Shown here one piece after another: positions 5,954 through 36,389 of a stretch of 64,000 nt of DNA. The notes under the pieces were generated by a model. That model had not been told where the DNA came from. It was given only the letters and a program-made list of their open reading frames with translations, and made no database searches. Within the stretch, counting starts at the first letter, position 1. The number at the start of each line of letters is the position of its first letter. The translations under genes and the position numbers were made by a program. Location of the stretch: contig JBAWZC010000002.1 in the NCBI GenBank assembly GCA_037143235.1, positions 47,186 through 111,185 of the forward strand, given 5' to 3'. Origin of the DNA: Candidatus Berkelbacteria bacterium. Its GTDB lineage: Bacteria; Patescibacteriota; UBA1384; XYA2-FULL-43-10; 1-14-0-10-43-13.

Positions 5954-6210
5954 AGCGTCATTAATTCAATATAAAAGTAATTGTTTGACCCTTCCGTAGC
6001 TCGAAGAGCGAAGGAGGGCTTAATTCAATTTGCAAGTCTGTTCTCCACAAGGTCGAACCATAACTTTTTATTCTTCGAGCGAGTCTGACGAGTCGAGAAG
6101 TCCAACTCTGTTCTCGATCCATAAACACCATTTCTGTCTATATATATTCTACTCGAATAGCACTGCACAAGCAAACTATTGGCCTGCAACCGTTTACATA
6201 CAACCACAGA

Positions 6211-8925
6211 TTACACCACTGGAGCATCCTCGCTCTTGTTTTCGACAACAGCTTGAAATATTTCATCGATAGTCGTCTCGCCAGCAAAAGCTTTCAATAT
6301 CCCATCTTGCCGCATCGTCAACATCCCATTTTTGATCGACTGTTCCTTGATCTCGTTTGCTGGCCTTTTCCCGATTGCCAACTCTTCGATCTCGGGAGTT
6401 ATCTTCATCACCTCATATATGCCCAATCGTCCTTTAAATCCATTGTTACACTCGTCACAACCCTTGCCATAATAGAGTTTCCACTCTTTCGGAAATCGAG
6501 CCCTGTCCTCAACGTTTTGTGGTGAAATTTTGTCTAACTCGCCCTTGATCTGTTCCATTAGCTTCTCAGGAACTTTCATCTCCTGCTTACATTTCGGACA
6601 GATACGACGCACTAGACGCTGTGCGATAATCAAATTAATCGCCGAAGTAATCAAAAATGGTTCTATGCCCATATTGATCAAGCGTGGTAGGGCTCCAGCA
6701 GTATCATTTGTATGTAAAGTCGAAAGCACTAGGTGGCCAGTCAATGCAGCGTGTGTAGCCATATTTGCAGTCTCAGAGTCACGAATCTCACCAACCATAA
6801 TAATATTCGGGTCTTGTCGCAAAACGCTGCGAAGACCAGAAGCAAAGGTAAAACCAATCTCCGGCTTGACCTGACACTGGTTTATGCCAGCAATTTCGTA
6901 TTCAACAGGATCTTCAAGCGTAATTACATTCACCCCAGGGACGCTAATGCGGTTTAGAATAGCGTAAAGAGTTGTTGATTTACCCGAACCCGTCGGACCA
7001 GTCGCAAGAATGACCCCAAAAGGCTTACCAATCGCCTCTACCGTATCTTTCTGCGCTGTCCCCATCACCCCAAGATCTTCGAGGGAAAGAATGCTCTGAC
7101 TTTTATCCAAGATCCTCATCACTACTTTTTCACCATGAACGGTCGGCAAGGTCGAAACACGCACATCGACTTCTCTCTTGTTGAAAACAACATCGAAACG
7201 GCCATCTTGCGGAATTCTCATCTCATCAATTTTGAGCTTGGAAAGAATCTTGATACGACTGACAAAGGGCGGATGAAACGATAGAGGGAGATCAAGCGCC
7301 TCTTTCATCACACCATCAACACGACACCTGATACGCAGAGACTTCACCAGAGGCTCAACATGAATATCCGAGGCTCGCGTTGTCAAGGCATAGTTTATAA
7401 CCGAAGCAACAATCTTGGGGATATAGCCACCTTTGCAAGACTCAGCCAGCATCTTTTCGTCCCTGATATCTTCTTTGACCAAAGATCCGATATCTTCATT
7501 TGCAAGGCCAGAGGCATCGCGAGCCTGCGACTCAGTGTCCAAGATTTGAGGCGCAGACGAAACAGCTGTATCTTCAACTTTCGCAGGCTGATCAGCTTGA
7601 CTAGTCAACAGACCACCATTTTGATTTATTTTCTGATCATTTTCAGTTGATCCCTGTTCTATTCCTTCTGACTCCTGCTTGCCCCGCGTAGCCTCGGCGG
7701 AGTGGGGATTACCAGACTTATCCACAGATTCTAGTTTTTGTTTACCAGACTTATTATTATCAGAATTATCAACCAAATCACTAGTCCCATTTTCAATATT
7801 GGTAACTTTAATACCAGCCGCCTGCAAACTTTCTTTGTCGCCGGCTCGAATACCCTCAGCAATCTGATCACGCTTTTGCTGCTGCGAAGGATCTATTGCA
7901 AGAGTATTTTTTATTTGATCGTCTTTTTTCGGAGTCGATATATCATCGATCGTCATCTCTGCTCTTTCGTTGACACCGAGCAAGCTTCCAACCATACTCT
8001 TAAATGACACCGCATCGCCACCCTTCGGTGCACTTTCTACCATAGGAGGGCTACTTGTCTCAACTTTTTCAATCTTATCAACCGTAAAATCAGGCAGATT
8101 TTGAATTGACTCACCCTTCTGCACAGTTTTTGATTCTGGGGACTGACTCAATTCCTTCAGTTTTGTTACCACAAAATCAATATCAGACCTAGATGTCGCA
8201 AAGAGCTCAACCTTAATATTATTTTCCTGACGTAATGACTGAACTATTTTCAAGGTTCTAGCATCATCAGGTTTCTCGCAAGCCAATAAATATTCTCCTG
8301 CTTGGTTTTGACCAATGACGACCACACGATTCTTTTCAATGAAATCCAAAGGCAATTTGTGAATATATTTCTCTGCAATCGCTTGATTTTGCAGGTACAC
8401 CACCGGCAAACTACCTTTTTTCAGTAAAGACTTGTTAGATTTTGGGGGGCGATATTGTTTTACGGCTTCGCTAAAATCAGTTTCACCCGTGACAAATAAT
8501 TCAATCTCGACTCCTTTTTTGTCAAAGAAATCGAGCAAACCAGTCTTGAAACCAACTAGCATATCTGCTGGATGAGCGACGGCTAGGCGAAGCAAGTTGT
8601 CAGTAAACGCAAAAGGTATTGCACCATATTTTCTGGAAATATTCTCGGGAAATATTTTCCTCGCCTCCACAGGGATCAAAACATTTTTCAGCTCGATATA
8701 AGGTAATTTAAGTAAAATACCATAGGCTTTGTTGATCGAGTCACGGGTCACTAGATTATTTTTTACCAAAAAGGTCTCAAGTTCGCGGTTGGTCTTGAAC
8801 ATCGTTCGCAAAGTGGATGCATCGTCCTGATCAATCACATTTTGCAACACAAAAACATCCAAAATAGACTGTGTTGACACAGCCTGCGGCAGATATCTTA
8901 AATTTGATTTGACAATATCGGCCAT
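6211..8925 (-). CDS. pilB: type IV pilus assembly ATPase PilB/GspE with an unusually long acidic low-complexity insert
   Basis: 904 aa. The C-terminal ~420 aa hold Walker A GPTGSGKST, a His box and the tetracysteine CPKC...CDEC. The N-terminal MshEN-like region is followed by a ~220-aa Ser/Glu/Asp/Gln-rich segment. Confidence 0.8.
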   Translation of the reverse strand: MADIVKSNLRYLPQAVSTQSILDVFVLQNVIDQDDASTLRTMFKTNRELETFLVKNNLVTRDSINKAYGILLKLPYIELKNVLIPVEARKIFPENISRKYGAIPFAFTDNLLRLAVAHPADMLVGFKTGLLDFFDKKGVEIELFVTGETDFSEAVKQYRPPKSNKSLLKKGSLPVVYLQNQAIAEKYIHKLPLDFIEKNRVVVIGQNQAGEYLLACEKPDDARTLKIVQSLRQENNIKVELFATSRSDIDFVVTKLKELSQSPESKTVQKGESIQNLPDFTVDKIEKVETSSPPMVESAPKGGDAVSFKSMVGSLLGVNERAEMTIDDISTPKKDDQIKNTLAIDPSQQQKRDQIAEGIRAGDKESLQAAGIKVTNIENGTSDLVDNSDNNKSGKQKLESVDKSGNPHSAEATRGKQESEGIEQGSTENDQKINQNGGLLTSQADQPAKVEDTAVSSAPQILDTESQARDASGLANEDIGSLVKEDIRDEKMLAESCKGGYIPKIVASVINYALTTRASDIHVEPLVKSLRIRCRVDGVMKEALDLPLSFHPPFVSRIKILSKLKIDEMRIPQDGRFDVVFNKREVDVRVSTLPTVHGEKVVMRILDKSQSILSLEDLGVMGTAQKDTVEAIGKPFGVILATGPTGSGKSTTLYAILNRISVPGVNVITLEDPVEYEIAGINQCQVKPEIGFTFASGLRSVLRQDPNIIMVGEIRDSETANMATHAALTGHLVLSTLHTNDTAGALPRLINMGIEPFLITSAINLIIAQRLVRRICPKCKQEMKVPEKLMEQIKGELDKISPQNVEDRARFPKEWKLYYGKGCDECNNGFKGRLGIYEVMKITPEIEELAIGKRPANEIKEQSIKNGMLTMRQDGILKAFAGETTIDEIFQAVVENKSEDAPVV

Positions 8926-8998: not shown

Positions 8999-9178
8999 GT
9001 CATTGCGAGGAGTCTGCGACGAAGCAATCTATCATTTAGTCTATTCTCGACAAGCTCGAACCATAACCGTTTACTCTTCAAAAAATGAAAAATGATCTTT
9101 GGAACAAATCTTGCTAGCTGAGAAGTAATGATAGATTGCCACGAGCCGAACGAACAGATCGGCTCTCGCAATGACAAG
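8999..9178. mobile_element. MITE-like element with ~40-nt terminal inverted repeats (TGTCATTGCGAG ... CAATCTATCATT)
   Basis: Left arm tgtcattgcgaggagtctgcgacgaagcaatctatcatt. The right arm is its inverted counterpart, aatgatagattgccacgagccgaacgaacagatcggctctcgcaatgaca. A solo arm lies at 12271-12312. Confidence 0.5.
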
Positions 9179-9243
9179 CATTTATTACTCTTCGAGCGAG
9201 TTCCCGAGTCGAGAAGTAACCAATCCAAAAGAAACAACCAAAT

Positions 9244-9527: not shown

Positions 9528-10052
9528 TTATCTTGTGTAAGTTTTCAGCCCAATCGTTGCTGACATACCGGTGTCAGTTGATGACATCGTGATATTATCG
9601 ATAGTCATAAACTTAACATCTTTTTCGATAGACTTGACCAATGCGTTGATCGCCTCGAACGAACCATTGACGGTGAAGCCAAGAGTTACGGCGTCACTTG
9701 AAGCTGTAGCATCAGCACTAGCAGTTTCGCCAGATATTTGGATGGACGGTATGACAAGCTTTTGAGCAGAAGCCAAAGCCTCAATCTCAGCAATAGTATT
9801 TTCGGTATCAGATCCCTGGGCAACCGCGACCAAAGTGTTCGTAACCAGATCTTTGTTGTTGGCAATCGCAGCCTTGGTCTGAACCAAAGAATTGTATTTA
9901 TCTTGAGCCATTTTCACTTCATCGCTAATCCGATCAATATCTGCAGCCTTTGACTTATAGCCGCCAAAGCCAGAAACATAACAGTAAGCCCATGAAGCCA
10001 CGATGATCAAGACAGCAAAGACGATCGAAAAATAAGAATTATCGCGTTTCAT
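9528..10052 (-). CDS. PilO-like pilus assembly protein
   Basis: 174 aa with N-terminal TM, a coiled-coil and a periplasmic domain. Its stop overlaps the next gene's start. Confidence 0.45.
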   Translation of the reverse strand: MKRDNSYFSIVFAVLIIVASWAYCYVSGFGGYKSKAADIDRISDEVKMAQDKYNSLVQTKAAIANNKDLVTNTLVAVAQGSDTENTIAEIEALASAQKLVIPSIQISGETASADATASSDAVTLGFTVNGSFEAINALVKSIEKDVKFMTIDNITMSSTDTGMSATIGLKTYTR

Positions 10053-10711
10053 ATTGCCTCCCCTGTCGCAAAGCTAGCTTTGCCGCTAATAGTAAATTTA
10101 AAGGAACTATTCTTGCCTTCAAGATCGTTACTGACCGAACCGATAGTAACTCCAGACAACTTATTCCAAGTCATCAAGGTCAGTGATTCATCAGCAATCG
10201 AACGATAATTCTTGGTCACACCGTCAAAGCTAAAGGTACCATCAGATGCCAAGGCCAGATTTTTTACCTGTATGCTAGAATTGACCTTGAGATAAAAACC
10301 ATCAAGAAATGTCCCGACTGAGACCGTTTTGTTGTTGGCATCGATCAGTTTGGTCGCAGCCAATTTAAAATCTTTGGCTTGCTTTTCAACTGCAGCATAG
10401 TCTGAACTGTTGATACTTTGAACGACATCGTTTCTCTCGTTTGTTTTGGCAGCGATATCTTGATCAAGGGACCTATTCATAAAATAAAGACCGCCAACGA
10501 CAACAAGAGAAAAAGCAGTAGTTATCCACAGGATGATGACCGGCCAATTGGTCGATTCCTTACTAACCTCGAACTGCAAATCTTCCAAGACACTATCTTT
10601 GCTCGATGTTGTCTTTTTTTCAGGAATAGGCATCGGCGAAGTTGTGTTTGGTTTGCTATTATCGCTACCAAAACTGCTACCGAAGCCACCATTGTTTTTT
10701 TCTGGTTCCAT
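10049..10711 (-). CDS. PilN-like pilus assembly protein
   Basis: 220 aa with a low-complexity cytoplasmic N-terminus, a single TM (WPVIILWITTAFSLVVVGGLYF) and a periplasmic domain. Confidence 0.45.
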   Translation of the reverse strand: MEPEKNNGGFGSSFGSDNSKPNTTSPMPIPEKKTTSSKDSVLEDLQFEVSKESTNWPVIILWITTAFSLVVVGGLYFMNRSLDQDIAAKTNERNDVVQSINSSDYAAVEKQAKDFKLAATKLIDANNKTVSVGTFLDGFYLKVNSSIQVKNLALASDGTFSFDGVTKNYRSIADESLTLMTWNKLSGVTIGSVSNDLEGKNSSFKFTISGKASFATGEAI

Positions 10712-10992
10712 ATTACCCTCCAGAGTAATCCATAAATATGCTTAATATTATTGTATAATACATTAAAGCTAATGACAAGCGAACGCTATTTATTCATTTA
10801 ATCATTTGATCAATTAGTCATTTATTTCACTATTTGAACACCAAATTTATTGTTTCTGTGATTTGGTCCGTTTTTCTCCCGACTAACTCCTGCCTGCCCC
10901 GAGTAACCCTGCCGTGCCATCCGTAATTTTAATGAAGGATAGGCGAAGTGGGATCTCCTGTCTTCTGTCTCCTGACTCTTAGCTGCTATCTC

Positions 10993-12180: not shown

Positions 12181-12270
12181 TACTTACAAGCTGAAGCTTG
12201 ATCTACTTAATTCCCGTAGCCCACGCTTTAGAGTGTTGCTCCACAAGCTGAAGCTTGATCTACGGGGCGA
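12181..12270. repeat. REP-like palindromes (family A)
   Basis: caagctgaagcttgatctac, cacgctttagagtg and a second caagctgaagcttgatctacgg. Same family as the RAYT-flanking REPs. Confidence 0.55.
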
Positions 12271-14225: not shown

Positions 14226-14298
14226 CTGTCATTCCCGCGCAGGCGGGAATCTACCAAAAGGTTTACTGTTTGTGGATTCCCGCCTGCGCGGGAATGAC
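14226..14298. repeat. 73-nt palindromic element (tgtcattcccgcgcaggcgggaatc ... gattcccgcctgcgcgggaatgaca)
   Basis: Perfect 25-nt inverted arms around a 23-nt spacer. A related copy lies at 22296-22395. Confidence 0.6.
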
Positions 14299-14411
14299 AA
14301 ATGAATCGGGAGAGACATTTTTTTTATTCTTCGAGCGAGTTTGACGAGTCGAGAAGTATCAGACTGTTCTCCTCAAGCTCGAACCATAGCTATTGAGATG
14401 ACCGATATTAT

Positions 14412-15822: not shown

Positions 15823-16170
15823 TTATTCTTTTTTATAGCCTGGAGATGATTCGATATTCTGGCCACGATATAAATCACGAAGCATACTAGAAGCCACAGT
15901 CAGCACACCGGTATATCGCGACACAGGTCTTGACAATGATTCCTCATCGAGCTCATCGGCTTTCGAGAGCAATGCTACCCGGTATTCCGCGTTTGTTTGT
16001 CCAGGATTTATATCCTTCAATTCCCTTGCTAACCTCATCGCCACTACGCGACCTTCTTGCGCAACTTGTTTTCGATCTTCATCTTCATTCAAATATCGCG
16101 AGTCAATCATATTTTTGCTTACCCCGTCACCCAAAAATTTGCCACCAATCGGGCTACCTTCCCTGAACAT
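15823..16170 (-). CDS. hypothetical protein
   Basis: 115-aa ORF upstream of dinB with no recognisable motif. Confidence 0.35.
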   Translation of the reverse strand: MFREGSPIGGKFLGDGVSKNMIDSRYLNEDEDRKQVAQEGRVVAMRLARELKDINPGQTNAEYRVALLSKADELDEESLSRPVSRYTGVLTVASSMLRDLYRGQNIESSPGYKKE

Positions 16171-16472
16171 ATTACCCCCTTTAAATATTATCTTTTTAAA
16201 TTATATTAACGCATTGATCAGAACAAGAGCTATGATCGATCCCAGAATGCATATCTATTTACTTTAATTTTAACCTATTTTGGGTGTTTTGGGCAAAATC
16301 TTCGTTGTCATAAATATTAACCTCTCCCGTAGTGATTTCCTTATCCTCGCTGAAGACAAGGTCGCTCTCGCAAATTTGCAAACAACTTAATAAATTCGAA
16401 CCTGTTAAATTGAAGGACTACCCACAACTTCAAGCGGTTGATATGCAAACAAAAGCAAAGTATCATTGAATT

Positions 16473-16727
16473 ATGAATCATATTTTAACAATAATTTTTG
16501 GTTTTTGGTTTACGGGCTGTTTCATTTTAATTATTCCCTGGGCAGCATTCTCGTTTTATACAGGACATTGGAGTGGATGGCGGGGCGAAGGATATAAAAA
16601 TACAAACGCGCCAGACTGGACTCTAACAGTACATCAGTTGTTAGAGTTTTGGTTTTATCTCCCGATGACAATTATTACATCCCCATTTGTTTTTATCGGC
16701 TGGTTGCTTAATAAAATATATAAATAA
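16473..16727 (+). CDS. small membrane protein
   Basis: 84 aa with two predicted TM helices. Its stop abuts the next start (TAAATG). Confidence 0.4.
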   Translation: MNHILTIIFGFWFTGCFILIIPWAAFSFYTGHWSGWRGEGYKNTNAPDWTLTVHQLLEFWFYLPMTIITSPFVFIGWLLNKIYK

Positions 16728-16901
16728 ATGAAATACGAATTTTTAACAGTGGAAGAAACAGCGAAAATTCTCAAGGTTACTAAGATGACCATTTATCGCT
16801 ATATCAAGGCTGGCAAGCTGACGGCTTATAAAGTTGGTAAAGATTTTAGGATAAACAAAGAAGAATTTGATAAGTTTTTAAATGAAATACGAAAGGGATA
16901 A
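16728..16901 (+). CDS. excisionase-family helix-turn-helix DNA-binding protein (Xis-like)
   Basis: 57 aa: MKYEFLTVEETAKILKVTKMTIYRYIKAGKLTAYKVGKDFRINKEEFDKFL, the classic excisionase/MerR-type HTH signature. Below the 60-aa cutoff of the ORF track. Confidence 0.6.
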   Translation: MKYEFLTVEETAKILKVTKMTIYRYIKAGKLTAYKVGKDFRINKEEFDKFLNEIRKG

Positions 16902-16904
16902 TTT

Positions 16905-17339
16905 ATGGATACATTATTTTTGATTATTACAGCACTTGGGGCTTTGGTTATTGGTATTCCATTGCTAATCTTTGTTTTAATCCCTTTGTGGTATATATGC
17001 ATTCCAATTATATTTACTATTCTACTTGGCTGGATTGGTTTATTTTTCGGAATTGGATTGGTGACTGTAATCTTCTGTGTTAAATGGATATTAACCGATA
17101 ATAACGACAAAGAAAAAGCACCGACAAAAAAGGAAGATAAACCAGATTCCAAAAAAGCATTTTTAGCTTTTATTACGGTATTCAGTATTTGGGGATTATC
17201 AAATTGGCTCTTCACTGATATTTTAGTACGACTTCACGGAACAAATAACGATTCAGACGGTTTGCTAATAATTATTTTTATGGCAGTGTCTGGCTTTGCC
17301 AGCTATAAGGTTGGGCAAAAAATGATAGAGGCCAAATAG
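16905..17339 (+). CDS. membrane protein (4 TM), unknown function
   Basis: 144 aa, hydrophobic, with a Lys-rich loop. Confidence 0.45.
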   Translation: MDTLFLIITALGALVIGIPLLIFVLIPLWYICIPIIFTILLGWIGLFFGIGLVTVIFCVKWILTDNNDKEKAPTKKEDKPDSKKAFLAFITVFSIWGLSNWLFTDILVRLHGTNNDSDGLLIIIFMAVSGFASYKVGQKMIEAK

Positions 17340-17343
17340 CAGA

Positions 17344-17655
17344 ATGAAATCAATTATTCTTGCCAGAGTATCAACAGAAGACCAAAAAGAGGCTGGCAAT
17401 TCATTGCCCACTCAAATTAAGCGTCTGAAAGATTATTGCAAAAGAAAAGATTTGGAGGTTATCAAAAAATTCAGCTTTGACGAATCAGCCTATAAAACCA
17501 AAAGAGATAAGTTCGATCGTATTCTTGAGTATCCGAAAGGCAACAAAGTAAAGATTGCTGTTTGCTTTGATAAGGTTGATTACTTTTCTAGAGCACCTGG
17601 GGACGCTCCCCAATTAGATACGGTTTTTGCAATAAGAAAATTTCTCAGAGAATAA
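17344..17655 (+). pseudogene. serine recombinase (resolvase/invertase) N-terminal fragment, truncated
   Basis: 103 aa, MKSIILARVSTEDQ..., the catalytic Ser motif (Y/L-ARVST-x2-Q) of serine recombinases. The ORF ends after about half the catalytic domain and lacks a DNA-binding domain. Confidence 0.6.
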
Positions 17656-19145: not shown

Positions 19146-19373
19146 ATGCATCTCGCATTTCACCATTTCATCACTTTTTCATTTAAACATTTATAAATAA
19201 ATGACTAAATGATTAATTGATTAAATGGATGCATTTGGCCCTTCGACAAACTCAGGGTCATTCGACTTTACGACCAAGTTAATTAACTCACAGAATGGTT
19301 CACCATCCCTCGACCATGAGCCTCTCGGGATCGAATGGTGAGCGAGAGACCAGATTGTTGGTCTCGAGTCGAA

Positions 19374-22295: not shown

Positions 22296-22395
22296 TATTC
22301 TCCTTGTCATTCCCGCGCAGGCGGGAATCTACAAATAGTTGTATTATTCTGGATTCCTGCCGGAGTTTATCCTGAACTCGTTTCAGGGCAGGAAT
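22296..22395. repeat. palindromic element related to the one at 14226-14298
   Basis: Left arm tgtcattcccgcgcaggcgggaatctac. Right arm attcctgccggag...cagggcaggaatgacaa. Confidence 0.5.
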
Positions 22396-22688: not shown

Positions 22689-22862
22689 TTGTGCCCTATT
22701 CTAAGCTAATTTTTTTTGATAAGATTGCTTTGTATCATCATAACTTATTCTTCGAGCGAATTTGATGAGTCGAGAAGTATATAATAGTTTTCAACGGACC
22801 CGAACAAGAATTTCGATACTTGCCAATATTAACACAATTTCAATTATATTTCAAGGACAAAT

Positions 22863-23501
22863 ATGCTTATACTCACACTGTTAGACAACCCGCTGGCTTT
22901 TGCCGCCTATATTCTCGCCCTGATCATCGGTTTCACTGTTCATGAATTTGCCCACGCTTTCGCCGCCAATCAGCTTGGCGATGATACGGCAAAACTGATG
23001 AGGCGATTAACTTTAAATCCCCTAGCCCACCTCGATCCGCTCGGGACTATCTTTCTACTAGCTTTTGGTTTTGGCTGGGGCAAACCAGTGGAGATAAACC
23101 CAAATCGTCTCAAAAGTCGCACCGACGAAATCATCGTCTCTCTTGCTGGCATCTTCGCAAATTTAGTTTTGGCCACACTTTTCTATCTACCAATCAGACT
23201 GGGTTTGATCGATACCAATTCACTTGCCTCAGTACTCCTTCATTTTATCGTCCTGATAAACTTATACCTTGCCGCTTTCAACATCCTGCCAATACCGCCA
23301 CTCGATGGTTCACATGTGATCAGCGTATTTTTGCCGATAATAACTAGAAATATAATTGCTTCACTGGGCACATATCTTCTACTGTTTATCTTGATCTTCA
23401 GCTCTTTTGGTGGTGGCGCTTCTCTCCTTAGTACTATTATGAACCCGATCGTCTCATTTTTCTCCCTGTTGACCACTGGCAACTCCTCTTTCGCTTTTTA
23501 G
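22863..23501 (+). CDS. site-2 protease family (M50) zinc metalloprotease
   Basis: 212 aa with an HEFAH motif in a TM helix and a downstream LDG motif. Polytopic membrane protein. Confidence 0.7.
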   Translation: MLILTLLDNPLAFAAYILALIIGFTVHEFAHAFAANQLGDDTAKLMRRLTLNPLAHLDPLGTIFLLAFGFGWGKPVEINPNRLKSRTDEIIVSLAGIFANLVLATLFYLPIRLGLIDTNSLASVLLHFIVLINLYLAAFNILPIPPLDGSHVISVFLPIITRNIIASLGTYLLLFILIFSSFGGGASLLSTIMNPIVSFFSLLTTGNSSFAF

Positions 23502-23502
23502 C

Positions 23503-24969
23503 ATGAATAGAATCGCGAAATTTATGCAAAGATACGCCTTATTATTGGCAATCATGATTGTCACGATTTCGAGCTTTTCAATTTATTTTTTTCGTTACAA
23601 TGTGCCAAATTCACCCTACTGGGACGAAAACTACCACATCGCCTCAGCCGAAAAATATCTCACCGGGACTTTCTTTTTTGAACCACACCCGCCCCTCGGC
23701 AAGATGCTAATTGCCCTAGGCGAAAAGGTCACCCATTCGAACAGCGACATCGACAAATCCAGCTTCAACAATACTGATTTTATTAAAAACTTTCCAACGA
23801 ATTACAGTTTTTTTGGCGTCAGACTATTGCCAACAATTTTTGCTGTTATTGCTTCAATTCTGTTTTTTATCTTAATTTTTACTCTCACCAAAAGCATCAT
23901 TATTTCGCTCGCAACTTGGTTGTTTTATCTACTCGACACCGCCATCATCCTTCATTTTCGAGGTGCCATGCTCGACGGCATCCAAATCACATTTTCGCTC
24001 GCCGCTCTAATTTTCTTTGCAACTCTCGTACAGGATAAGACAAAATCATATTTTTGGAAAATGACATTTCTCGGACTTTTTGTCGGTTTGGCTGTTGCCA
24101 CCAAGCTAAATGGACTTTATCTCCTTTCTTTATATCTCTTTCTAATCCCATGGAAACAAATCAGACACATACTCAGCAGAGACTTTTGTCGAGAAATTAT
24201 AGCAATTTTTTATTCAATCTTGGTTGGTTGCCTTGTCGTCCTCTCAATCTATATCACCCACTTAGCGATTACCGAAAACATTGTCGACGACAGAACTTAC
24301 GAGCTCGACCAGACACCGATCGACATAGTGAAAAATGGTTACAAAAACCCAACTGATTATCTCACCATGACGGTCAAATATATTGAATATGAAAATAAGT
24401 ATAATACCAAAGTCCCAGCGCTAAACCTGACCAGCCCGACCGAAAACGGGAGCCCACCACTAACTTGGGCCTTCGGCATCAAACCGATCAGATATCGTTA
24501 CGACACTAACTTTGTCGATACTTCCTACCTATATTTGACACCCAATCCTGTGGTTTGGGGCATCGGTCTCATCGGCCTCATCCTATCGATTTCACTAATC
24601 ATCTCAAAATTCTTATTTAAACTAGAAGTGGTCGACAAGAAACTGTATAAACTGATTACTGTTTTCTGTTTTCTTTACTTGTCGTATATGGTTCCGATGT
24701 TTTTCATTTCCCGTGTTATGTACCTCTACCACTATATTCCAGCCCTCGTCATCTCAATCATCTTGTTTGGCCTAAATCTTGCTTATCTCCGGTCGATCTA
24801 TCGTCGCCGAGAAACAATTTTTACCATCGTGATTGCTCTGCTCATTGCGATGACGGTCTATGTTTTTTGTCTTTACAGCCCACTAGTTTATTACAAAAAA
24901 ATTAGTTGTCCAGAACTGAAAGGTCTCGAGATTAGTAAACTCTGGCAGATGAGCTGCCCAACCAAATGA
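23503..24969 (+). CDS. polytopic membrane glycosyltransferase (GT39/PMT- or ArnT-like, lipid-carrier dependent)
   Basis: 488 aa, multi-TM, with an N-terminal loop containing the acidic DE motif (YWDENYH). Confidence 0.5.
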   Translation: MNRIAKFMQRYALLLAIMIVTISSFSIYFFRYNVPNSPYWDENYHIASAEKYLTGTFFFEPHPPLGKMLIALGEKVTHSNSDIDKSSFNNTDFIKNFPTNYSFFGVRLLPTIFAVIASILFFILIFTLTKSIIISLATWLFYLLDTAIILHFRGAMLDGIQITFSLAALIFFATLVQDKTKSYFWKMTFLGLFVGLAVATKLNGLYLLSLYLFLIPWKQIRHILSRDFCREIIAIFYSILVGCLVVLSIYITHLAITENIVDDRTYELDQTPIDIVKNGYKNPTDYLTMTVKYIEYENKYNTKVPALNLTSPTENGSPPLTWAFGIKPIRYRYDTNFVDTSYLYLTPNPVVWGIGLIGLILSISLIISKFLFKLEVVDKKLYKLITVFCFLYLSYMVPMFFISRVMYLYHYIPALVISIILFGLNLAYLRSIYRRRETIFTIVIALLIAMTVYVFCLYSPLVYYKKISCPELKGLEISKLWQMSCPTK

Positions 24970-26474
24970 AATTACTCTATCACATTTTTTCATCGATAAT
25001 TGCCCTTGGCATTATCTTTTTTCTGATTACAGGCGGACACCAAGCAAGTACAACTTTGACCAAAGCAAATGAGTCAACGATTCCACAAAACAAAAAAGAA
25101 CTAGTCGCGACTCATTACTTCGTTCCAGTCACGAGTTTTGCTGACTATCGAACCAATATTTCCTCCACTGACCTTGGCAAACAAAACCTTTGTGCGAGCA
25201 TTGACGATAAACGATATTTGGAAAAGATTTTGCCAGATATGACGATATCATACTTTAATACGACGAAGATCAAACCAACTTTTGACAACAAAATTTGGTT
25301 GCTTTCGCCTGACGACATTGATTTTTCGATGAAAACATTGAAAATAGATAATCAAAATTTCTGGGACAAAGGTACTGATTTATCATTATATCCACTGAAA
25401 TCAACTGAGTTATCAGACACGAATACCGAAGCCAAAGACCTACGCGAACGATTTTTCGTTGGAGGCGAAATCATCCCTGCTCGAGCTGTCGATCGACTCG
25501 CTCTCAATAAATATAACAATTACACTTATCTTTTCGATTTCTTCCGACACGATATCGAAACTGCCGACCTTTCGCTGGCCATGTTGGAAAATCCCATTAG
25601 CGGCGACCCAGAGCCCTGCACTGGTTGTATGTCCTTTGTCGGCGATGAGAAAAATGCCGCCGGACTATCGACAGTTGGTTTTGATATGCTTAGTCTCGCC
25701 GGCAATCATGCTGGCGACGGCAATCAATCCGCTTACGCCCGAACTATTGAAGTTCTAAAAGCCGCCGGTATCGAAACAACCGGTACTGGCAAAAGTGACG
25801 AGGACAAGATTCGCCCAGCAATCAAGGTAGTCAACGGCCAGCGCATCGGCCTGATCGGCGCCGACAGCATCTCTAGCTACTACTGGAACAAGGGTACCAA
25901 TCGCTACGGCACGAACTGGTTTTCAAACCAAATGAATAACGGCACAGACCAAGATCGCGTCGACCTGATCAAAACACTAAAAGCACAATATCAGATCGAC
26001 TATCTCATCATCTATATGAGTTGGGGTATCGAGTACACCAATGTCGCCACCAAATTTCAGACCGATCTTGCCCACGATCTGATCGATCACGGCGCTGACC
26101 TGATTGTCTCAAGTCATCCACACTGGGTTCAAAATATGGAAATATACAAAGGCGTGCCGATCTTTTATGCTCTCGGCAATTTTATCTTTGATCAAACGCA
26201 TACCGACCCAACCAGAGAAGGAGTTGTCCTCAATCTTTACTATTACAATCACACACTGAAATCGATCGAAATTGTACCACATCTGACATGCAGTGTTCAC
26301 ATGACTTCGAACAATCTGACAGAAAAATATCTAAACGGTCAGATAGATAAAAATTTTCTCAGCTCTCATCCTGAGAATCAGGGCTGTGTCTATCTGCAAC
26401 CTCGAGCACTGACAAAATCAGACTCTCGCTACAAAGAAATACTCGACCGGATGATGCAATACACAAAATTCTAG
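24966..26474 (+). CDS. capA: CapA-family metallophosphatase (poly-gamma-glutamate capsule biosynthesis protein CapA/PgsA-like)
   Basis: 502 aa with an N-terminal TM and a C-terminal metallophosphoesterase domain (GNHAGD, SSHPHWVQ, ALGNFIFDQ). Confidence 0.65.
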   Translation: MKLLYHIFSSIIALGIIFFLITGGHQASTTLTKANESTIPQNKKELVATHYFVPVTSFADYRTNISSTDLGKQNLCASIDDKRYLEKILPDMTISYFNTTKIKPTFDNKIWLLSPDDIDFSMKTLKIDNQNFWDKGTDLSLYPLKSTELSDTNTEAKDLRERFFVGGEIIPARAVDRLALNKYNNYTYLFDFFRHDIETADLSLAMLENPISGDPEPCTGCMSFVGDEKNAAGLSTVGFDMLSLAGNHAGDGNQSAYARTIEVLKAAGIETTGTGKSDEDKIRPAIKVVNGQRIGLIGADSISSYYWNKGTNRYGTNWFSNQMNNGTDQDRVDLIKTLKAQYQIDYLIIYMSWGIEYTNVATKFQTDLAHDLIDHGADLIVSSHPHWVQNMEIYKGVPIFYALGNFIFDQTHTDPTREGVVLNLYYYNHTLKSIEIVPHLTCSVHMTSNNLTEKYLNGQIDKNFLSSHPENQGCVYLQPRALTKSDSRYKEILDRMMQYTKF

Positions 26475-26539
26475 TCTCAAATATTCAATGGCTCAGGGAT
26501 ATCTACCTGTGAGCCATTGAGCTTACTCCGTAGTAAGTG

Positions 26540-26640
26540 ATCACTACCATATTCTTCTCTTTCGTCGTAGCCCAGACTTTAGTCTGTTTGCATTAGCAAC
26601 AAGCTGAAGCTTGGGCTACGGTGAACAGTTACACTCCGCA
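26540..26640. repeat. REP-like palindromes (family A)
   Basis: tcgtcgtagcccagactttagtctg and caagctgaagcttgggctacggtgaac. Confidence 0.5.
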
Positions 26641-26713
26641 CTCTTGCATTTTTACCCTCTTTGCTCTACAATCACATCAATTCTCCAGGATGGACCACGG
26701 CTCAAGATGAGCA

Positions 26714-27415
26714 ATGTCAAAACAAAGGAGAAGATGCACTATGAGAACTCTAATCAAAGTAGTCGAGTATGTTCTAGAAACAAAACTCGACCATCCAATC
26801 AATATCCCACCGGGGATAACGAGGAAAGAGATTCTAGAAGTTTGTCCGACGGTCTGTGGCCAAGAAATATCAGAATTCCTGATGATGCGTGTCTGCTCGG
26901 ACAACAACGATGTGTTCGAAGGGGCATGCTGTTGTCCTCACTGGGATTTACTTCTGAAGGGCTCAGCGCTTCTGGGAATTGGAAGAGACAACATCGTCGA
27001 ATATGCAGAATTCTTCTGCGGGGAAGACGAAGAGAAGGTTGACACCCTCTCTGTCCTCTCTGGCCGGCGAGGCAGCGAATATCAAGCAAACTGCTACTGT
27101 CGACGATTGCTCCTTGCCCTTAAATTGGTGCAAGACGCAATGAAAACTCGGGAGCAACCACCAGATAACAGGATAGTTAACGAGCTGACTTCATCCGAAT
27201 TGTACGCTGCCGCATCCATTGCCGAGTTGCGAGAACTTGCCGAGTGTATACAGTGGGCGGAAGACGAAGAGAAAAAAAAGCTCCTCAACGAGATCATTCG
27301 CCGAATCAAGGGAGAAATACTCGTCACCGACGAGACGAGACTTCTCTCCACAGAGCCAGTTAAGACTGGCTGCCCGATAGCTCCCCAAAATCACTTTAAC
27401 GGTGTAGCAGCATAA
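26714..27415 (+). CDS. Cys-rich hypothetical protein on a high-GC island (alternative start ATG at 26735)
   Basis: 233 aa with about 48-50% GC against about 40% for the surrounding sequence. Many overlapping antisense ORFs arise as a GC artefact. Flanked by REP on the left and a hairpin at 27438-27466 on the right. Confidence 0.5.
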   Translation: MSKQRRRCTMRTLIKVVEYVLETKLDHPINIPPGITRKEILEVCPTVCGQEISEFLMMRVCSDNNDVFEGACCCPHWDLLLKGSALLGIGRDNIVEYAEFFCGEDEEKVDTLSVLSGRRGSEYQANCYCRRLLLALKLVQDAMKTREQPPDNRIVNELTSSELYAAASIAELRELAECIQWAEDEEKKKLLNEIIRRIKGEILVTDETRLLSTEPVKTGCPIAPQNHFNGVAA

Positions 27416-27505
27416 CAGACACTGCGCACATTACAGAAACCCGGTCGCATTGCGGCCGGGTTTGCCTGTATATTTTCAAATCAATTTATAACAACACGAA
27501 GAATT

Positions 27506-28591
27506 TTATTCATCATTCAGGCGGAACTTCCAAGAAGCGATCGCCAGACAACCAACTATCCAAGCGCCAACTATAATCAGATTATTTGGATCAGCAAAGA
27601 TAGAGGCCCCTTCCAAGATGACACCTCGCATTATTCGCAATAGCGGAGCTAAGGGCAGAAACTGAACGATTGAGTAAAGCCACTTGGGCAGAGTATCGAT
27701 CGGAAAAAAGATACCGCCCAAAAACATCATCGGGATTGTAATCGCCATCGCCGCTCCTTGGGCTGCATCTACAGTCCGGACGATCGAAGCGAGAGCAAAA
27801 CCGATTAGTTGAAACATGACCGCGCCAATCAAAGCGACCAAATAAATCATGTAAACACTACCGTAGATGTGAGCGCCAAAAACATATTTACCAATGATAT
27901 AGATGATCGTAATCTGAAGAAAATTGAGCACGAGCCTCGACAAGACTTCTCCGGTAATAAACCACCAAGTTTTGATCGGGGCGGTGATGATACGCTTCAG
28001 GATCTTGTCTTCACGATATTTATTCATCCCTATCGCAATGCCCATGATTGAGGCATTCATCAAGGCCAGACCGAACATACCAGCCAAAACAAAATCAAAA
28101 TAAGTCAATTTGTTCGTATTTGTCTTTTCTTCTTTGATCGCAAAAGCCTCGGACCGAATATTGTTCTGTTGATAGGTCATTTGAGTATTGAACTTATTCA
28201 AAAATCCCAACAAGATAGTATTTGTTGTAGCATTGCCAGGATCATCAATGACCGTAATTTCTCGCGGTGCGCTAGTAGATAGATCACCAAAACCTGACGG
28301 GATCACGATAGCTCCTCCGGCCTTACCCTTTTTGACTGCAGCTCTCGCTTCGTCAACATTTTTTATCGAAGTGTTAATAGCAAACAATTTAGAATCAACG
28401 ATAGTTGTTTCAATATTTTTGGCGATCACTGACTGAGAGTTATTGATGATTATGACCGTACCGTTCGTCGAATCTTTGCCAAAAAATAAACCAAAAATAA
28501 CCGTAAACATCAGCGGGAACATCAGCGCCCAGAAGGAAGCCTGACGGTTTCGAAACAACATTTTTAAGTCGGACCAAAATAGTTTAATCAT
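27506..28591 (-). CDS. ABC-2 type transporter permease
   Basis: 361 aa with an N-terminal TM, a large extracytoplasmic loop and a C-terminal 5-TM ABC2 membrane domain. Confidence 0.7.
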   Translation of the reverse strand: MIKLFWSDLKMLFRNRQASFWALMFPLMFTVIFGLFFGKDSTNGTVIIINNSQSVIAKNIETTIVDSKLFAINTSIKNVDEARAAVKKGKAGGAIVIPSGFGDLSTSAPREITVIDDPGNATTNTILLGFLNKFNTQMTYQQNNIRSEAFAIKEEKTNTNKLTYFDFVLAGMFGLALMNASIMGIAIGMNKYREDKILKRIITAPIKTWWFITGEVLSRLVLNFLQITIIYIIGKYVFGAHIYGSVYMIYLVALIGAVMFQLIGFALASIVRTVDAAQGAAMAITIPMMFLGGIFFPIDTLPKWLYSIVQFLPLAPLLRIMRGVILEGASIFADPNNLIIVGAWIVGCLAIASWKFRLNDE

Positions 28592-32627: not shown

Positions 32628-33818
32628 ATGAAAATACTTTTAGCCTCAGAATCGTTTCCACCAAATGTTTCTGGTGTGGCCACAGCCACAAAAAACTTGG
32701 CACAAAATCTGGTGAAATTTGGACATACTGCTATCGTTATAACTCCGGGCAATGTTCGCCAAAACAAAAAAGACGATCGTTTTCCTGATTACGATGTCAT
32801 ACGCATCGCCTCCATTCCAAATCCTTTTCGCAAAGGCTTCCGCATTGCTTTCTCCTCAAAAAATCGCATCAAGAAAATATTATTAGAAACGAAACCAGAC
32901 CTAGTCCACCTCCAAGACCCAGCTGCTATCGGTACCTTGGTACGCGATACGGCCAATGACCTAGGTATCCCAGTCGTCATCACCAATCATTTTTCTCTCG
33001 AATATGCCCTTTCCTATGTCAAAGGCTTATCTCCGATCATCCCCTTGCTCAGACAAGGACTGATCACTTATCTGGCGAATTTTTACAATCATTGTGATCA
33101 GGTCGTCACACCGACAGAAACTTTCGTCAAGCAGGTGCGACAATGGGGTGTGAAAAAACCAGTTATTGCAGTTTCCAACGGCATTGATGTTAGCAAATTC
33201 ATCACTCATTTTACCAAAGATGAACTCGACGACTTTCGCAAATCTCACCTCTTGCCTGATGGTCACATCATCCTCTATCTCGGCCGCGCAGACAAAGACA
33301 AAAGCATCGATGTTATCATCCGCTCCATACCAGAGGTAGCTAGTAAATGCGACGCACATTTTGTCATCGCGGGCACAGGCGGTGAGATCGAAAATCTCAA
33401 AAAGCTGGCGACTGAACTAAATGTTGATAAAAATGTGACCTTCCTTGGTTTTCTGGATCAAAAGAATGACGATAAAATCAAAATGTTCAAAAGCGCCACC
33501 GTCTTTGCAATACCTTCAACAATCGAAACACAAAGTATCGTTACTCTTGAAGCTCTTGCTTCGCGTGTGCCTGTCGTCGCCGCTGATGCCGGTGCCCTAC
33601 CAGAGCTAGTCATTGACGGCAAAGATGGCTACCTGATCAAGCCAGGCGACCACCAAGCACTTGCGAAACACCTCATCGAGATCATCAAAGACAAAAAGAA
33701 GCAGCAAGATATGGGCGACTACGGCTTCACTATCGCCATGCACCATCAGATGGATACCGCCTTCAAAGAAATGCTAGCCCTATATAAAGAAGTGATTGAG
33801 AGAAAGAAAAAGTCCTAG
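32628..33818 (+). CDS. GT4-family glycosyltransferase (glycosyl transferases group 1)
   Basis: 396 aa with a C-terminal GT-B fold carrying the EX7E-like signature (FAIPSTIETQSIVTLEALASRVPVVAADAG). Confidence 0.7.
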   Translation: MKILLASESFPPNVSGVATATKNLAQNLVKFGHTAIVITPGNVRQNKKDDRFPDYDVIRIASIPNPFRKGFRIAFSSKNRIKKILLETKPDLVHLQDPAAIGTLVRDTANDLGIPVVITNHFSLEYALSYVKGLSPIIPLLRQGLITYLANFYNHCDQVVTPTETFVKQVRQWGVKKPVIAVSNGIDVSKFITHFTKDELDDFRKSHLLPDGHIILYLGRADKDKSIDVIIRSIPEVASKCDAHFVIAGTGGEIENLKKLATELNVDKNVTFLGFLDQKNDDKIKMFKSATVFAIPSTIETQSIVTLEALASRVPVVAADAGALPELVIDGKDGYLIKPGDHQALAKHLIEIIKDKKKQQDMGDYGFTIAMHHQMDTAFKEMLALYKEVIERKKKS

Positions 33819-34229
33819 ACTGATATTGAATAGTTTCATTTAGTCATTTAGCCAATTGATCGTTTAATCATTGATTGAAGAATTGGAAATTGGATATTGG
33901 GAAATTAACTGATTATTGTTTCTTGGTTATTGTATCTTGGGGTCACTTCTTGACTATTGCTTCTTGCCAGTTTAGGTAATTAGAAATTAGAAATTAGAAA
34001 TTTTCTCAGCGTCCGCCCCACCCTCTAAATTGGTTATAAATAACCAAGTGGGCGACCTCACGCTCTGACCACGGCCAGAGCAAATATTAGAAGCCCTTAA
34101 AAGATTTGTTAGCCAATTTATGATAGATAGGACGGACAGACACATCTTATCATAACTTCAAATATCGCCAAAACCTTTTATATCAACTCTGATTCTGGTA
34201 AAATAGTCTTGTTAATATCGGAATGACCT

Positions 34230-36389
34230 ATGGGCAAACCGCAGCTATTTGTTCAATCATATTTTTTGGCAACACAGGAAAAAACCCTGGGCAGACATTT
34301 GGCGACTGGTAAAATCCTTTTTAATGATCTTACTGATTCATTTTTCTTTTATTTGATCGAAATTACGCCAGAAACCGCTTTTGACACCGTGATTGAGCGT
34401 ATCATCGTCGATACGATGGAAAGTTTTTCTGACACCTCTGCTGTAAATGAAGCAAGTTTCGAAAAAGTTTTGACCAAGATAAACGCAGGTCTTGGAGAAC
34501 TGGCCGACTCAAGCCAGAGTCATTGGGCTGATCATCTAAATGCTATCGTCGGAGTTGTCGATGGCGACAATATCCTGATCTCTCAATGTGGCAAGATTAT
34601 CGGCTATATTTTTCGCAAAAACCGTATCTCCTCGCTGACAGACAACAGCAAAGTTACCGCCACCGCTCACAGCGTTTTTGATGAAATTATGGCTGGGCAG
34701 ATTGCCACCAACGATCGCATCGTCTTTGGCACCTCCGAATTTTTTGCCCATATCTCACTCGATAGGACGAGAAAACTCGGCACAGACCGCTCTCTGCTGG
34801 AAGACCTCTACTCCATCCAGAAATACTTTCAGCGACAGCGCTCAGCCACCGCCAACGCCATCTTCTTTGAAATTGATTGCTTGCCTGACGAGGTTGAAAC
34901 CAGAACTCTTTTTCTCGACGAACCTGAGATCAGCTCGACTGATATTTTTTGGGCAAAAGCAAAACCAATTTTAACGAAAATTGCCAAAAATATTGCTCTG
35001 GCCAGTGCCTTTCTCTGTAAATACATCGCAATTGGCAGCAAAAAATCCCATGGCTTTATCAAAAAAAGTATTTCACCCAAACTTTCTCACTACACTGGAG
35101 AAATCACCGAGTCAATCAAGAAAAAGTTGCCAAAGATAGACTACTCCGAGCGATTTTCACCACAACGAGCTTTTAACCCGACCGGCATTCGAGTCAAAGG
35201 TGCAAATTATTCTCCCCGAACCAGCAAGAAAAACTTTCTCACCTATGCCTTATTTTATTTCTCATTACTGGGGCTATTATTTGAAAAGAAAAACCGCAAA
35301 TATCTATACGCTACCCTAATAGCCTTGGCAATCATCATCGCTTTCTGCAAGATAACTATCAACAATTCAGAGCGTGGCAAGATCGCCGATCAAGCTGACC
35401 AAACACTCGCCTATGAAAAAGCTTTGACTCTTTACAACTCTGGCAAACAAGATATCGCTCTAGGGAAAACTACCGGCAAAGACCAGCTCAGCCAAGCCCT
35501 GAGCCAAGCCGAGGAAGCCCAGAAAAACAAAGATTACGCCGAGAAAAGTACCGCTCTGATCAAGAGCATCAACCAGGTTTTTGACAAACAAATTGTAGCC
35601 ACTAGAGTCTATACTGACAACGCCAATATCTCCTTACCAGCTGATACAGTTTTTGCGATCAGCGTTGGCAACGATATCTATTCTATCTCCAAAAACAACC
35701 ACATTTTCTCAGGGTCAGCCAATAACTACACTCCGACAGAGATAAAGAATTTCCCTATTTCATCACCACAAATCTCAGCCATCACTTATTCTGGCTATCT
35801 CAACAAAATATTTTTCCATGCAGATGCCAAAATGTTCACCATGGATGTTTCTTCCAAAAGCTTCTCAGAACTAATGATCAGCGATGCCACTAGCTTATGG
35901 GAGACAGCGACAACTTTTGCCAGTTATCGTTCCAGCCTCTACCTTATGGATTCCAACAGCAAAACAATATTTAAGCATGTAGCTGACAACGCAAATTACA
36001 GCAAAGGCCAAGTCTACCTGACAGCTGCCAAAAATACTTTGGCGAACGCCATCGACATCGCTATCGACGGTGATGTCTACCTACTTTATAAAGATGGCTC
36101 AGTCAATAAATATCGTCAAAGCACCCTACTTTCAGAATTTAAATTGCGCAACATCCCCTCTCCAGATTCAGCTATCTCGGGCGCCAGCAAAATCTTTACG
36201 GACGAAGATACCAACAACATCTTTGTGATGGACAAAGCCAAAAATCGCGTCATCGTTTTCGACAAAACTGGCAACTATCAGAAACAATATATTTTAGATA
36301 ATACCGATCTGACCGGTTTTACCGTCAACCCCAAATTACAAAAAATCTGGCTCCTCTCGGGAAACAGATTATTCGAAGCCGGACTATAA
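34230..36389 (+). CDS. bitopic membrane protein with N-terminal PP2C-like (PPM) phosphatase-like domain and large extracytoplasmic C-terminal domain
   Basis: 719 aa. NAIVGVVDGDNILISQCGKIIGYIFRKNRISSLTDNS resembles the PPM motif (GDSR...lT.DHS). Two TM helices around residue 340 and a beta-rich C-terminus. Confidence 0.4.
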   Translation: MGKPQLFVQSYFLATQEKTLGRHLATGKILFNDLTDSFFFYLIEITPETAFDTVIERIIVDTMESFSDTSAVNEASFEKVLTKINAGLGELADSSQSHWADHLNAIVGVVDGDNILISQCGKIIGYIFRKNRISSLTDNSKVTATAHSVFDEIMAGQIATNDRIVFGTSEFFAHISLDRTRKLGTDRSLLEDLYSIQKYFQRQRSATANAIFFEIDCLPDEVETRTLFLDEPEISSTDIFWAKAKPILTKIAKNIALASAFLCKYIAIGSKKSHGFIKKSISPKLSHYTGEITESIKKKLPKIDYSERFSPQRAFNPTGIRVKGANYSPRTSKKNFLTYALFYFSLLGLLFEKKNRKYLYATLIALAIIIAFCKITINNSERGKIADQADQTLAYEKALTLYNSGKQDIALGKTTGKDQLSQALSQAEEAQKNKDYAEKSTALIKSINQVFDKQIVATRVYTDNANISLPADTVFAISVGNDIYSISKNNHIFSGSANNYTPTEIKNFPISSPQISAITYSGYLNKIFFHADAKMFTMDVSSKSFSELMISDATSLWETATTFASYRSSLYLMDSNSKTIFKHVADNANYSKGQVYLTAAKNTLANAIDIAIDGDVYLLYKDGSVNKYRQSTLLSEFKLRNIPSPDSAISGASKIFTDEDTNNIFVMDKAKNRVIVFDKTGNYQKQYILDNTDLTGFTVNPKLQKIWLLSGNRLFEAGL

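Follow-up and report, generated by a model that had tools for sequence, protein, structure and literature searches.

A single-gene unit in a Candidatus Berkelbacteria genome that encodes a member of a rare four-cysteine protein family and may have been acquired horizontally

Among described systems, the closest to the locus treated here are single-gene genomic islets, horizontally acquired ORFan or accessory genes set among housekeeping genes, in which one open reading frame (ORF) with its own terminator has an atypical guanine-plus-cytosine (GC) content, codon usage and oligonucleotide signature and belongs to a patchily distributed family. These traits are shared by a gene at positions 26741 to 27415 (+ strand) of a 64,000-nt stretch of contig JBAWZC010000002.1 from a Candidatus Berkelbacteria bacterium (the whole stretch is called the window, and the gene and its 224-aa product the window gene and the window protein). 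Unlike such islets, the window gene has no integrase, tRNA target or direct repeats, and phage, plasmid and viral collections yielded no vector. Integron cassettes offer another comparison, as the window gene likewise consists of one ORF with an imperfect inverted repeat after it, and its family occurs in varied contexts; in contrast to cassettes, it has no integrase and no cassette array, it appears to have its own promoter, and the repeat is a terminator-like hairpin. An integron cassette was rejected by eye, with no attC core (RYYYAAC/GTTRRRY) seen, although no dedicated search was run.

Two further systems are of use for comparison. A palindrome upstream of the window gene resembles the repetitive extragenic palindromic (REP) elements of Proteobacteria in being short, imperfect, multi-copy and intergenic, often in inverted pairs or clusters, but its sequence is unrelated, its host is a candidate phyla radiation (CPR) bacterium, and it occurs as 6 to ~12 units in 64 kb. 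WhiB-like (Wbl) [4Fe-4S] proteins and structural Zn(Cys)4 modules are small Cys4 metalloproteins, and the window protein is comparable in being small, helical, presumably cytoplasmic, and endowed with exactly four family-wide cysteines, two of them in Cys-Pro pairs. It differs from them in having neither CxxC nor CxxCxxxxxC, in cysteines spaced 27-91 residues apart with one in the C-terminal tail, and in showing no sequence or fold similarity to such families.

Altogether, with a probability of roughly 0.5, the locus is best explained as a single-gene unit that encodes a protein of a rare Cys4 family and that was acquired horizontally as a one-gene unit. As judged from its sequence, the window protein belongs to a very rare, previously undescribed family characterized by four conserved cysteines, an LSGRRG loop and a C-terminal tail. 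The gene itself is a genuine, self-contained transcription unit (possible promoter, Shine-Dalgarno sequence, ORF and terminator hairpin) located between a CapA-like gene for capsule synthesis and a convergent ATP-binding cassette (ABC) transporter operon.

The ORF at 26714-27415 is the only substantial + strand ORF in 26300-27700 and encodes 233 aa when counted from its first ATG, the length given in an earlier preliminary description of this DNA. A Shine-Dalgarno sequence lies 10 nt ahead of a later in-frame ATG, at 26741, from which 224 aa are encoded, and an identical 224-aa public product is named 'MAG: hypothetical protein WCG48_01160 [Candidatus Berkelbacteria bacterium]'. Because the Shine-Dalgarno sequence and the public gene call both favor ATG 26741, the gene is taken as 26741-27415 and the protein as 224 aa. 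The intergenic DNA upstream measures 266 nt, the downstream neighbor is a convergent ABC-2 permease gene with its stop at 27506, and no paralogue was found within the window. The features of the locus are the following.

26484-26521, + strand: stem-loop TCAATGGCTCA...TGAGCCATTGA, an inverted repeat (fold -21.4 kcal/mol, z -5.4)
26561-26625, no strand assigned: REP-like imperfect palindrome with units CGTAGCCCAGACTTTAGTCTG and CAAGCTGAAGCTTGGGCTACG inverted (fold -35.4 kcal/mol, z -5.4)
26644-26672, + strand: possible promoter, TTGCAT-17 nt-TACAAT, proposed by eye
26724-26730, + strand: Shine-Dalgarno sequence AAAGGAG; the public call starts at ATG 26741
26741-27415 (stop included), + strand: 224-aa coding sequence, or 233 aa if read from the alternative in-frame ATG at 26714
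27437-27463, no strand assigned: G+C-rich hairpin AAACCCGGTCGCA-T-TGCGGCCGGGTTT (-25.4 kcal/mol on the + strand, z -5.4; -21.0 on the - strand)

The candidate promoter has 8/12 consensus matches, which is under the threshold of the consensus scan, so that it is unlisted there. The stem-loop at 26484-26521 starts 10 nt past the stop (26474) of the upstream CapA-like gene (PF09587); it has no T-tail and the consensus terminator scan makes no call there, and it is probably a terminator-like end of the upstream operon, outside the gene's own unit. The hairpin at 27437-27463, whose 13-nt arms contain one mismatch, lies between two stops, 22 nt past that of the window gene (27415) and 43 nt short of that of its convergent neighbor. 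AAA and TTT frame its stem, with GCCTGTATATTTTC after it, and a strict T-tail rule makes no call. The same AAA-stem-TTT build is common to other hairpins of this genome (repeat family D5), and for this genome the hairpin is unusually G+C-rich. From its place and build, the hairpin is a probable bidirectional intrinsic terminator between convergent genes.

The family was defined through sequence searches. A word-indexed search of 5.8 billion proteins matched the window protein to itself only, scored just 7 members when queried with the full family alignment, and gave zero matches with a core-only alignment. An exhaustive phmmer search of 1.84 billion 50%-identity representatives returned 20 matches besides the query at E <= 1e-3 (best 7.6e-13), which measure 149-296 aa and are 30-43% identical over residues ~60-145. 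About 19 distant relatives remain once a spurious match, P0007, is dropped, and the nearest relative found anywhere is 30% identical. P0007 is a 463-aa protein from a 2.3-Mb contig of the European Nucleotide Archive (ENA), built of 8 tandem repeats that each hold KKNCIFSAENHFNGAK; its similarity, at E 4e-7, is to the C-terminal 22 residues of the window protein (TGCPIAPQNHFNGVAA), which it matches 8 times, and it was rejected as repeat-driven. Clustering at 90% identity places each of the 29 family proteins looked up, all from metagenome assemblies, in a group of only 1-3 sequences.

Conserved columns were taken from alignments A1 and A4 (22 sequences, P0007 left out). Residues C65, P66, C93, G94, G108, G111 and C120 are invariant, and G79, L106, R109, C211, P215, F219 and G221 nearly so; C211 is present in at least 90% of alignment rows, the exceptions being truncated sequences. 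The core can be written as CP(H)-helix-(L/I)G(I/V)xR(E/D)xI-helix-FCG-x6-(D/N)-x-(L/I)GPLSGRRGxE(Y/F)xPxxxCxR, and a helix-GIG-helix reminiscent of a helix-turn-helix (HTH) lies between C65-P66 and C93-G94. Next come a variable helical region and, as the final 14 residues, CPxxPxxxFxGxxS, a tail found at the extreme C-terminus of members with an intact C-terminus. Proteins of the family measure 190-300 aa. In the window gene, these elements are placed as follows.

26933-27106, + strand: conserved core, residues 65-122, from the invariant and near-invariant columns of A1/A4
26933-26938, + strand: C65-P66, core
27017-27022, + strand: C93-G94, core
27056-27073, + strand: L106-S-G-R-R-G111, core loop
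27098-27106, + strand: C120-x-R, core
27371-27412, + strand: C-terminal tail C211-P-I-A-P215-Q-N-H-F219-N-G221-V-A-A224, with near-invariant C211, P215, F219 and G221

The window protein contains 11 cysteines, at 35, 39, 52, 63-65, 93, 118, 120, 169 and 211, including the clusters quoted in the preliminary description, and just 4 of them (C65, C93, C120 and C211) are conserved across the family; the CPTVC and CYC pairs are not. The C-terminal half, which had been described as helical and acidic, is indeed predicted to be helical, but it is only mildly acidic, with an isoelectric point of 5.5 against 4.6 for the N-terminal half and 4.9 for the whole protein. No known family had been recognized by eye, and none emerged from the searches either: the 22 family members have no match in Pfam, PHROGs, PADLOC or NCBIfam, the family profile finds nothing better than E 0.09 among Protein Data Bank (PDB) sequences, and a structure search with the AlphaFold model of the window protein gave no known-fold match. 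This model is mediocre, with an overall predicted local distance difference test (pLDDT) score of 61 (37 when built from the single sequence), and the core is modelled best (pLDDT 77-86 at residues 61-80 and 83 at 121-130). Its strands are single-residue at 64 and 93 and short at 21-22, 194-195 and 208-209.

The composition of the window gene sets it apart from its surroundings. GC reaches 49-51% over 26.8-27.4 kb (26800-27400) against a window mean of 42.1%, so that the rise in GC first noticed by eye is real, though its right edge is not sharp. The ORF has a GC of 48.1% in its 233-aa form and 48.6% in its 224-aa form; compared with 700-nt windows, it lies in the top 1.3% (z ~1.9), and the 224-aa gene ranks 1/47 among the genes of the window (48.6% against 42.3%, z 2.4). 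In synonymous codon usage, the window gene is the most atypical of the 47 (z -5.3 against all genes). Because all + strand genes deviate from the pooled set, the test was repeated on these genes alone, and the window gene was again the lone outlier at z -4.7, the other six falling between -1.2 and +0.9. Its third codon positions hold more A and G and less T, and its codon-position GC of 57/38/51% is a pattern typical of coding DNA. Its strand-symmetric trinucleotide signature also ranks within the top 0.8% of windows, with a comparable deviation in only one other region, at 16.1-16.9 kb. The pile-up of overlapping ORFs that had also been reported was found again, eight further ORFs of at least 50 aa overlapping 26611-27394 on both strands.

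Other members of the family are also often at odds with their hosts, as seen from the GC at third codon positions (GC3).

Locus L020: family gene 67%, neighbors 31 +/- 2.5%
Locus L014: family gene 50%, housekeeping neighbors 27-36%
Locus L018: family gene 49%, neighbors 24-51%
Locus L015: family gene 40%, neighbors 53-64%
Locus L022: family gene 35%, neighbors 49 +/- 5%
Locus L021: family gene about equal to neighbors

Discordance in both directions cannot result from amino-acid composition, and it argues for repeated transfer of the family gene; at the level of the family, therefore, composition points to repeated horizontal transfer. Individual loci show this in different forms. At L020, the gene of P0018 is a razor-sharp one-gene island (9778-10899, GC 53.5%, GC3 67%) between rpsB and rpmE, and the GC profile steps up at ~9.9 kb and down at ~10.9 kb. 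It ends in its own G+C-rich hairpin (~10860-10890) and has on its two sides, at 9778-9789 and 10888-10899, a 12-nt exact direct repeat, TCCTCTCTTGAA, which duplicates the rpsB ribosome-binding region and is equalled in 7/300 shuffles. A 12-nt exact direct repeat, ATCCCAAGCGTA, also lies at 59-70 and 1175-1186 of L005, around the gene of P0024, where 1/300 shuffles equal it, and may be an insertion scar. These flanking repeats are suggestive, but they are inconsistent across loci. At L014, a ~3-kb GC-rich block (3367-6387, GC3 44-51%) holds four unannotated genes with the family gene at its end, and is thus a multi-gene islet rather than a single gene.

For the window copy, horizontal acquisition is likely but unproven, with somewhat better than an even chance of being right. 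The preliminary description had reached the same view from composition and repeat boundaries; composition, codon usage and a sparse, discordant family lend it partial support, and the argument from repeat boundaries falls away. The most serious competing account is that of a vertically inherited, lineage-specific Berkelbacteria gene whose GC and codon usage are odd owing to amino-acid composition, strand or expression, which is rather unlikely. CPR genomes are rich in lineage-specific hypothetical genes, and the strand-wide deviation of + strand genes from the pooled, mostly - strand codon usage is in line with vertical descent. A series of observations also weighs against acquisition. The GC excess of the window gene is biggest at codon position 1 (56.9%, z 2.6), and much of it is amino-acid driven, while its GC3 of 51.1% (rank 2/47, z just 1.7) is no outlier alone. 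The GC peak is not unique, since 25.45-25.9 kb inside the neighboring and clearly native CapA-like gene reaches 54%, and GC of 45-47% persists on the right to ~28.0 kb, into the 3' end of the ABC-2 gene; because of this second peak and this soft edge, the GC island must be considered real but modest. At L021, the family gene agrees with its host in composition. Around the window gene, neither insertion scars nor mobility genes such as an integrase or transposase are present, the closest recombinase trace being a 103-aa resolvase fragment ~9 kb off (17344-17655); no tRNA is adjacent, the closest lying at 31826 and 32455. The longest exact direct repeat flanking the window gene is 8 nt and is equalled in 232/300 shuffles, and one 10/11 flanking repeat is at chance level. 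Genome contigs searched with the CapA-like protein of the flank gave a 2.5-kb Dojkabacteria fragment, 47% identical, and nothing else, and the other contigs with the window gene (L001 and L002) are 100% identical to the window. No viral, phage or plasmid contig with the family gene was found in the collections searched. What speaks for acquisition over descent is that the window gene still stands as the lone outlier among + strand genes, that its trinucleotide signature is in the top 0.8%, that the nearest relative is 30% identical, and that the two-way host discordance elsewhere in the family is unexplained by amino-acid composition.

Acquisition of the gene should be kept apart from the structural reading first given to the locus, in which 26540-27466 would be a discrete mobile element with the REP as its left end and the hairpin as its right end. 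Both features are real and flank the ORF, the hairpin lying 1-3 nt from the coordinates first given, and the direct repeats at L005 and L020 exceed shuffled expectation, yet such an element is very improbable here. The two supposed ends are unrelated in sequence, no recombinase is present, the flanking repeat is at chance, and the GC rise starts at ~26.8 kb, ~200 nt to the right of the REP-like palindrome. The palindrome is one copy of a genome-wide intergenic repeat: its unit, CGTAGATCAAGCTTTAGCTTG, has 6 occurrences in the window at no more than 3 mismatches, against 0 expected, and more divergent copies exist. Every REP-like copy in the window lies between ORFs, and those at 1101-1180, 1749-1906 and 12186-12265 (1.02-1.18, 1.73-1.91 and 12.17-12.32 kb) lie between ordinary same-strand genes, so that the presence of a copy upstream of the window gene is silent on mobility. 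The hairpin is terminator-like in place and build; being unusually G+C-rich, and with hairpins also carried by family genes elsewhere, it may well have travelled with the gene, in which case it would be the 3' end of a transcription unit and not a recombination site. The palindrome and the hairpin are thus taken as ordinary features of this genome and not as the ends of a mobile element. A tie to export or processing is somewhat more credible, though still improbable: the window protein would be a precursor whose conserved C-terminal tail would be cleaved or modified, and exported, or a regulator or accessory of adjacent ABC-2 or MacB-type transporters. An ABC-2 permease/ATPase pair and a MacB-type ATPase/permease pair adjoin the window gene, another MacB-type pair lies 3-4 kb from the family gene of L014 (41% and 26% identical), an Rce1-like (CPBP) intramembrane protease gene stands 38 nt upstream on the same strand in L022/L023, and the extreme C-terminal cysteine motif is strikingly conserved. 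However, the window gene is convergent to the transporter operon and not co-transcribed with it, neither transporter nor protease is found near most family loci, and a peptidase domain is absent from the transporters. By eye, neither a signal peptide nor a double-glycine leader can be seen in the window protein (the N-terminus of another member, P0002, is signal-peptide-like), and proteins of 190-300 aa with a conserved folded core are unlike known precursor peptides; the two co-occurrences with MacB-type transporters can be chance, since these transporters are common. A precursor of a ribosomally synthesized and post-translationally modified peptide (RiPP) or bacteriocin was rejected as well, given 224 aa with a folded core, adjacent ABC proteins that are convergent and peptidase-free, and a CPBP protease at only one other locus. 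That the ORF is no gene at all, opened by chance in locally high GC that removes stops and that also holds the eight other overlapping ORFs, can be set aside almost entirely. This last account is already refuted by the conservation of the family, whose ~19 distant homologues share invariant residues and two motifs in hosts of 33-52% GC, and the proper Shine-Dalgarno sequence and start and the coding-typical codon-position GC also speak against it.

The preferred reading of a lone gene, acquired as one unit, can be compared with the genomic contexts of the other family members.

L014: after rpsF and ychF, inside a block with three other unannotated genes, then a 5'-3' exonuclease gene, polA and a MacB-type ABC pair
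L020: the rpsB-tsf-pyrH-frr cluster (divergent) on one side, rpmE-prfA-prmC on the other
L021: rpsT and a DHH gene on one side, DUF6036, rpsO and pnp on the other
L015-17: following EamA, SNase, HEAT, HTH_3 and DUF2178 genes
L004: 19 nt past an HTH_3 gene
L018: adjoining a histidine kinase gene
L022/23: 38 nt past an Rce1-like (CPBP) protease gene
L006: frameshifted family copy

Most family genes stand alone, with intergenic gaps on their flanks and often among housekeeping genes, and in L020, L024 and L025, where the downstream sequences were read, the gene is followed 3' by its own terminator hairpin. All-against-all BLAST of the family loci revealed no recurrent partner gene; the sole repeated neighbors are an HTH_3 gene, shared by L004 and L015, and the MacB-type ABC pair, shared by the window and L014. 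The neighbors in the window are CapA-like, PMT, M50 peptidase and ABC transporter genes. In L022 (7433-9012) and L023 (3098-4677), the Rce1-like gene ('CAAX protease') runs on the same strand as the family gene and is preceded by a weak HEPN_RnaseLS match, an arrangement found in one organism only, and a CPBP protease as a neighbor is intriguing alongside the Cys-containing C-terminal tail of the family. In L006 (1344-2178), the N- and C-terminal parts of the family profile are matched by two separate but overlapping ORFs (1344-1796 and 1756-2178), a split that reflects either an assembly error or a frameshifted pseudogene. Host GC ranges over 33-52%, and the hosts give the impression, and only that, of being restricted to CPR, from a split PolA, DUF5652/DUF5654 neighbors and a 0.1-um groundwater sample. 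Family contigs of ~1.08 kb were considered as small circles and rejected, as their ends do not overlap and they include chromosomal genes on the flanks.

Vectors were looked for in several ways. Four members, compared by tblastn with phage and plasmid collections, had no match there, and two subfamily alignments found nothing among viral contigs. Degenerate DNA patterns matched six viral contigs, none of which passed the family hidden Markov model (HMM), and a stricter pattern gave zero viral matches; one high-GC actinobacterial contig of a metagenome collection matched by a degenerate pattern was rejected as a chance match. No vector is therefore known for the family, as no phage, plasmid or viral contig searched carries it. 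A literature search on Berkelbacteria and horizontal gene transfer returned nothing of relevance.

As for structure and function, the following picture may be proposed. The window protein would be mostly helical and, since no signal peptide or transmembrane segment is seen by eye, probably cytoplasmic, while member P0002 has a hydrophobic, signal-peptide-like N-terminus. The four conserved cysteines, two of them as Cys-Pro, could form one metal site (Zn or Fe-S), which would clamp the conserved C-terminal tail onto the helical core. In the model, the strands are compatible with the packing together of an N-terminal NxP motif, the core cysteines and the segment before the tail. Moreover, the helix-GIG-helix beside the first cysteine is HTH-like and might hint at a nucleic-acid-binding or regulatory role, and the segment A-x-(L/I)-L-G-(I/V)-(S/T)-R-E-x-I between the two helices resembles an HTH turn and recognition helix. 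The gene would have been acquired horizontally as a one-gene unit, as other family members appear to have been.

A cytoplasmic Cys4 metal-binding protein is the favored guess at function; metal binding is put forward tentatively, as a possibility slightly short of even, and a nucleic-acid-binding or regulatory role is doubtful. An enzymatic role seems less likely, as the alignments contain no invariant Asp, Glu, His, Ser or Tyr. These proposals have points against them, too: the conserved cysteines are 28, 27 and 91 residues apart, with no CxxC or other canonical spacing, pLDDT is under 50 at the GRRG loop (101-112) and the extreme C-terminus, and the weak HTH_3/HTH_26 matches of one member (E 0.16-0.19) are no evidence for an HTH. 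A bolder view, in which the family would be a new kind of one-gene cassette (promoter, ORF and terminator) that moves without known recombinase or vector among small, compact, probably CPR-like genomes, leaves composition islands of up to 67% against 31% GC3 and, in at least some insertions (L020 and L005), short flanking duplications, and encodes a new Cys4 metalloprotein fold with a functional or processed C-terminal tail, is considered quite unlikely.

Several other features of the window can be mentioned. The region at 16100-17655, its other compositional outlier, contains small HTH_17 ORFs (16741-16901) and the resolvase fragment at 17344-17655, and is probably a decayed mobile element, separated from the window gene by ~9 kb of housekeeping genes. 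Four intergenic sites, at 4731-4870, 10788-10834, 19157-19230 and 33838-33873, hold arrays that repeat every 8 nt (ATTTAATC ATTTGGTC ATTTACTC ...), in both orientations. A second intergenic repeat family, built around the palindromic TTATTCTTCGAGCGAGTTTGACGAGTCGAGAAGT, is found at 3205-3240, 6035-6128, 9038-9220, 14320-14402 and 22741-22805, and a third repeat, TGTCATTCCCGCGCAGGCGGGAATCTAC, forms an inverted pair at 14227-14300 and a single copy at 22304-22348 (94% complementary); its ATTCCC-N8-GGGAAT core may resemble the dRS3-type repeats of other bacteria. The + strand genes (22863-26474, 32628-36389 and 45437-48274) all have a negative codon-usage z against the pooled, mostly - strand set, with ~33% C and ~14% G at third positions, a bias that indicates a strong strand-specific mutational asymmetry and is consistent with a steadily falling cumulative GC skew.

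In kind, the locus is ordinary, as compositionally foreign single-gene hypothetical loci are common in CPR genomes. Its protein, however, is no true ORFan but the anchor of a very rare family whose signature is clear, which is present in no curated database and matches no known fold, and which might thus be registered as a new metal-binding module and tested as such. The family resembles a lone hopping gene, one that departs strongly from host composition, upward as well as downward, and for which no vector is visible, and if this is true in a larger sample, it would provide a small handle on gene exchange in reduced genomes with few recognizable mobile elements. The value of the locus thus resides in a definable new family, together with a hint of lone-gene movement without a visible vector.

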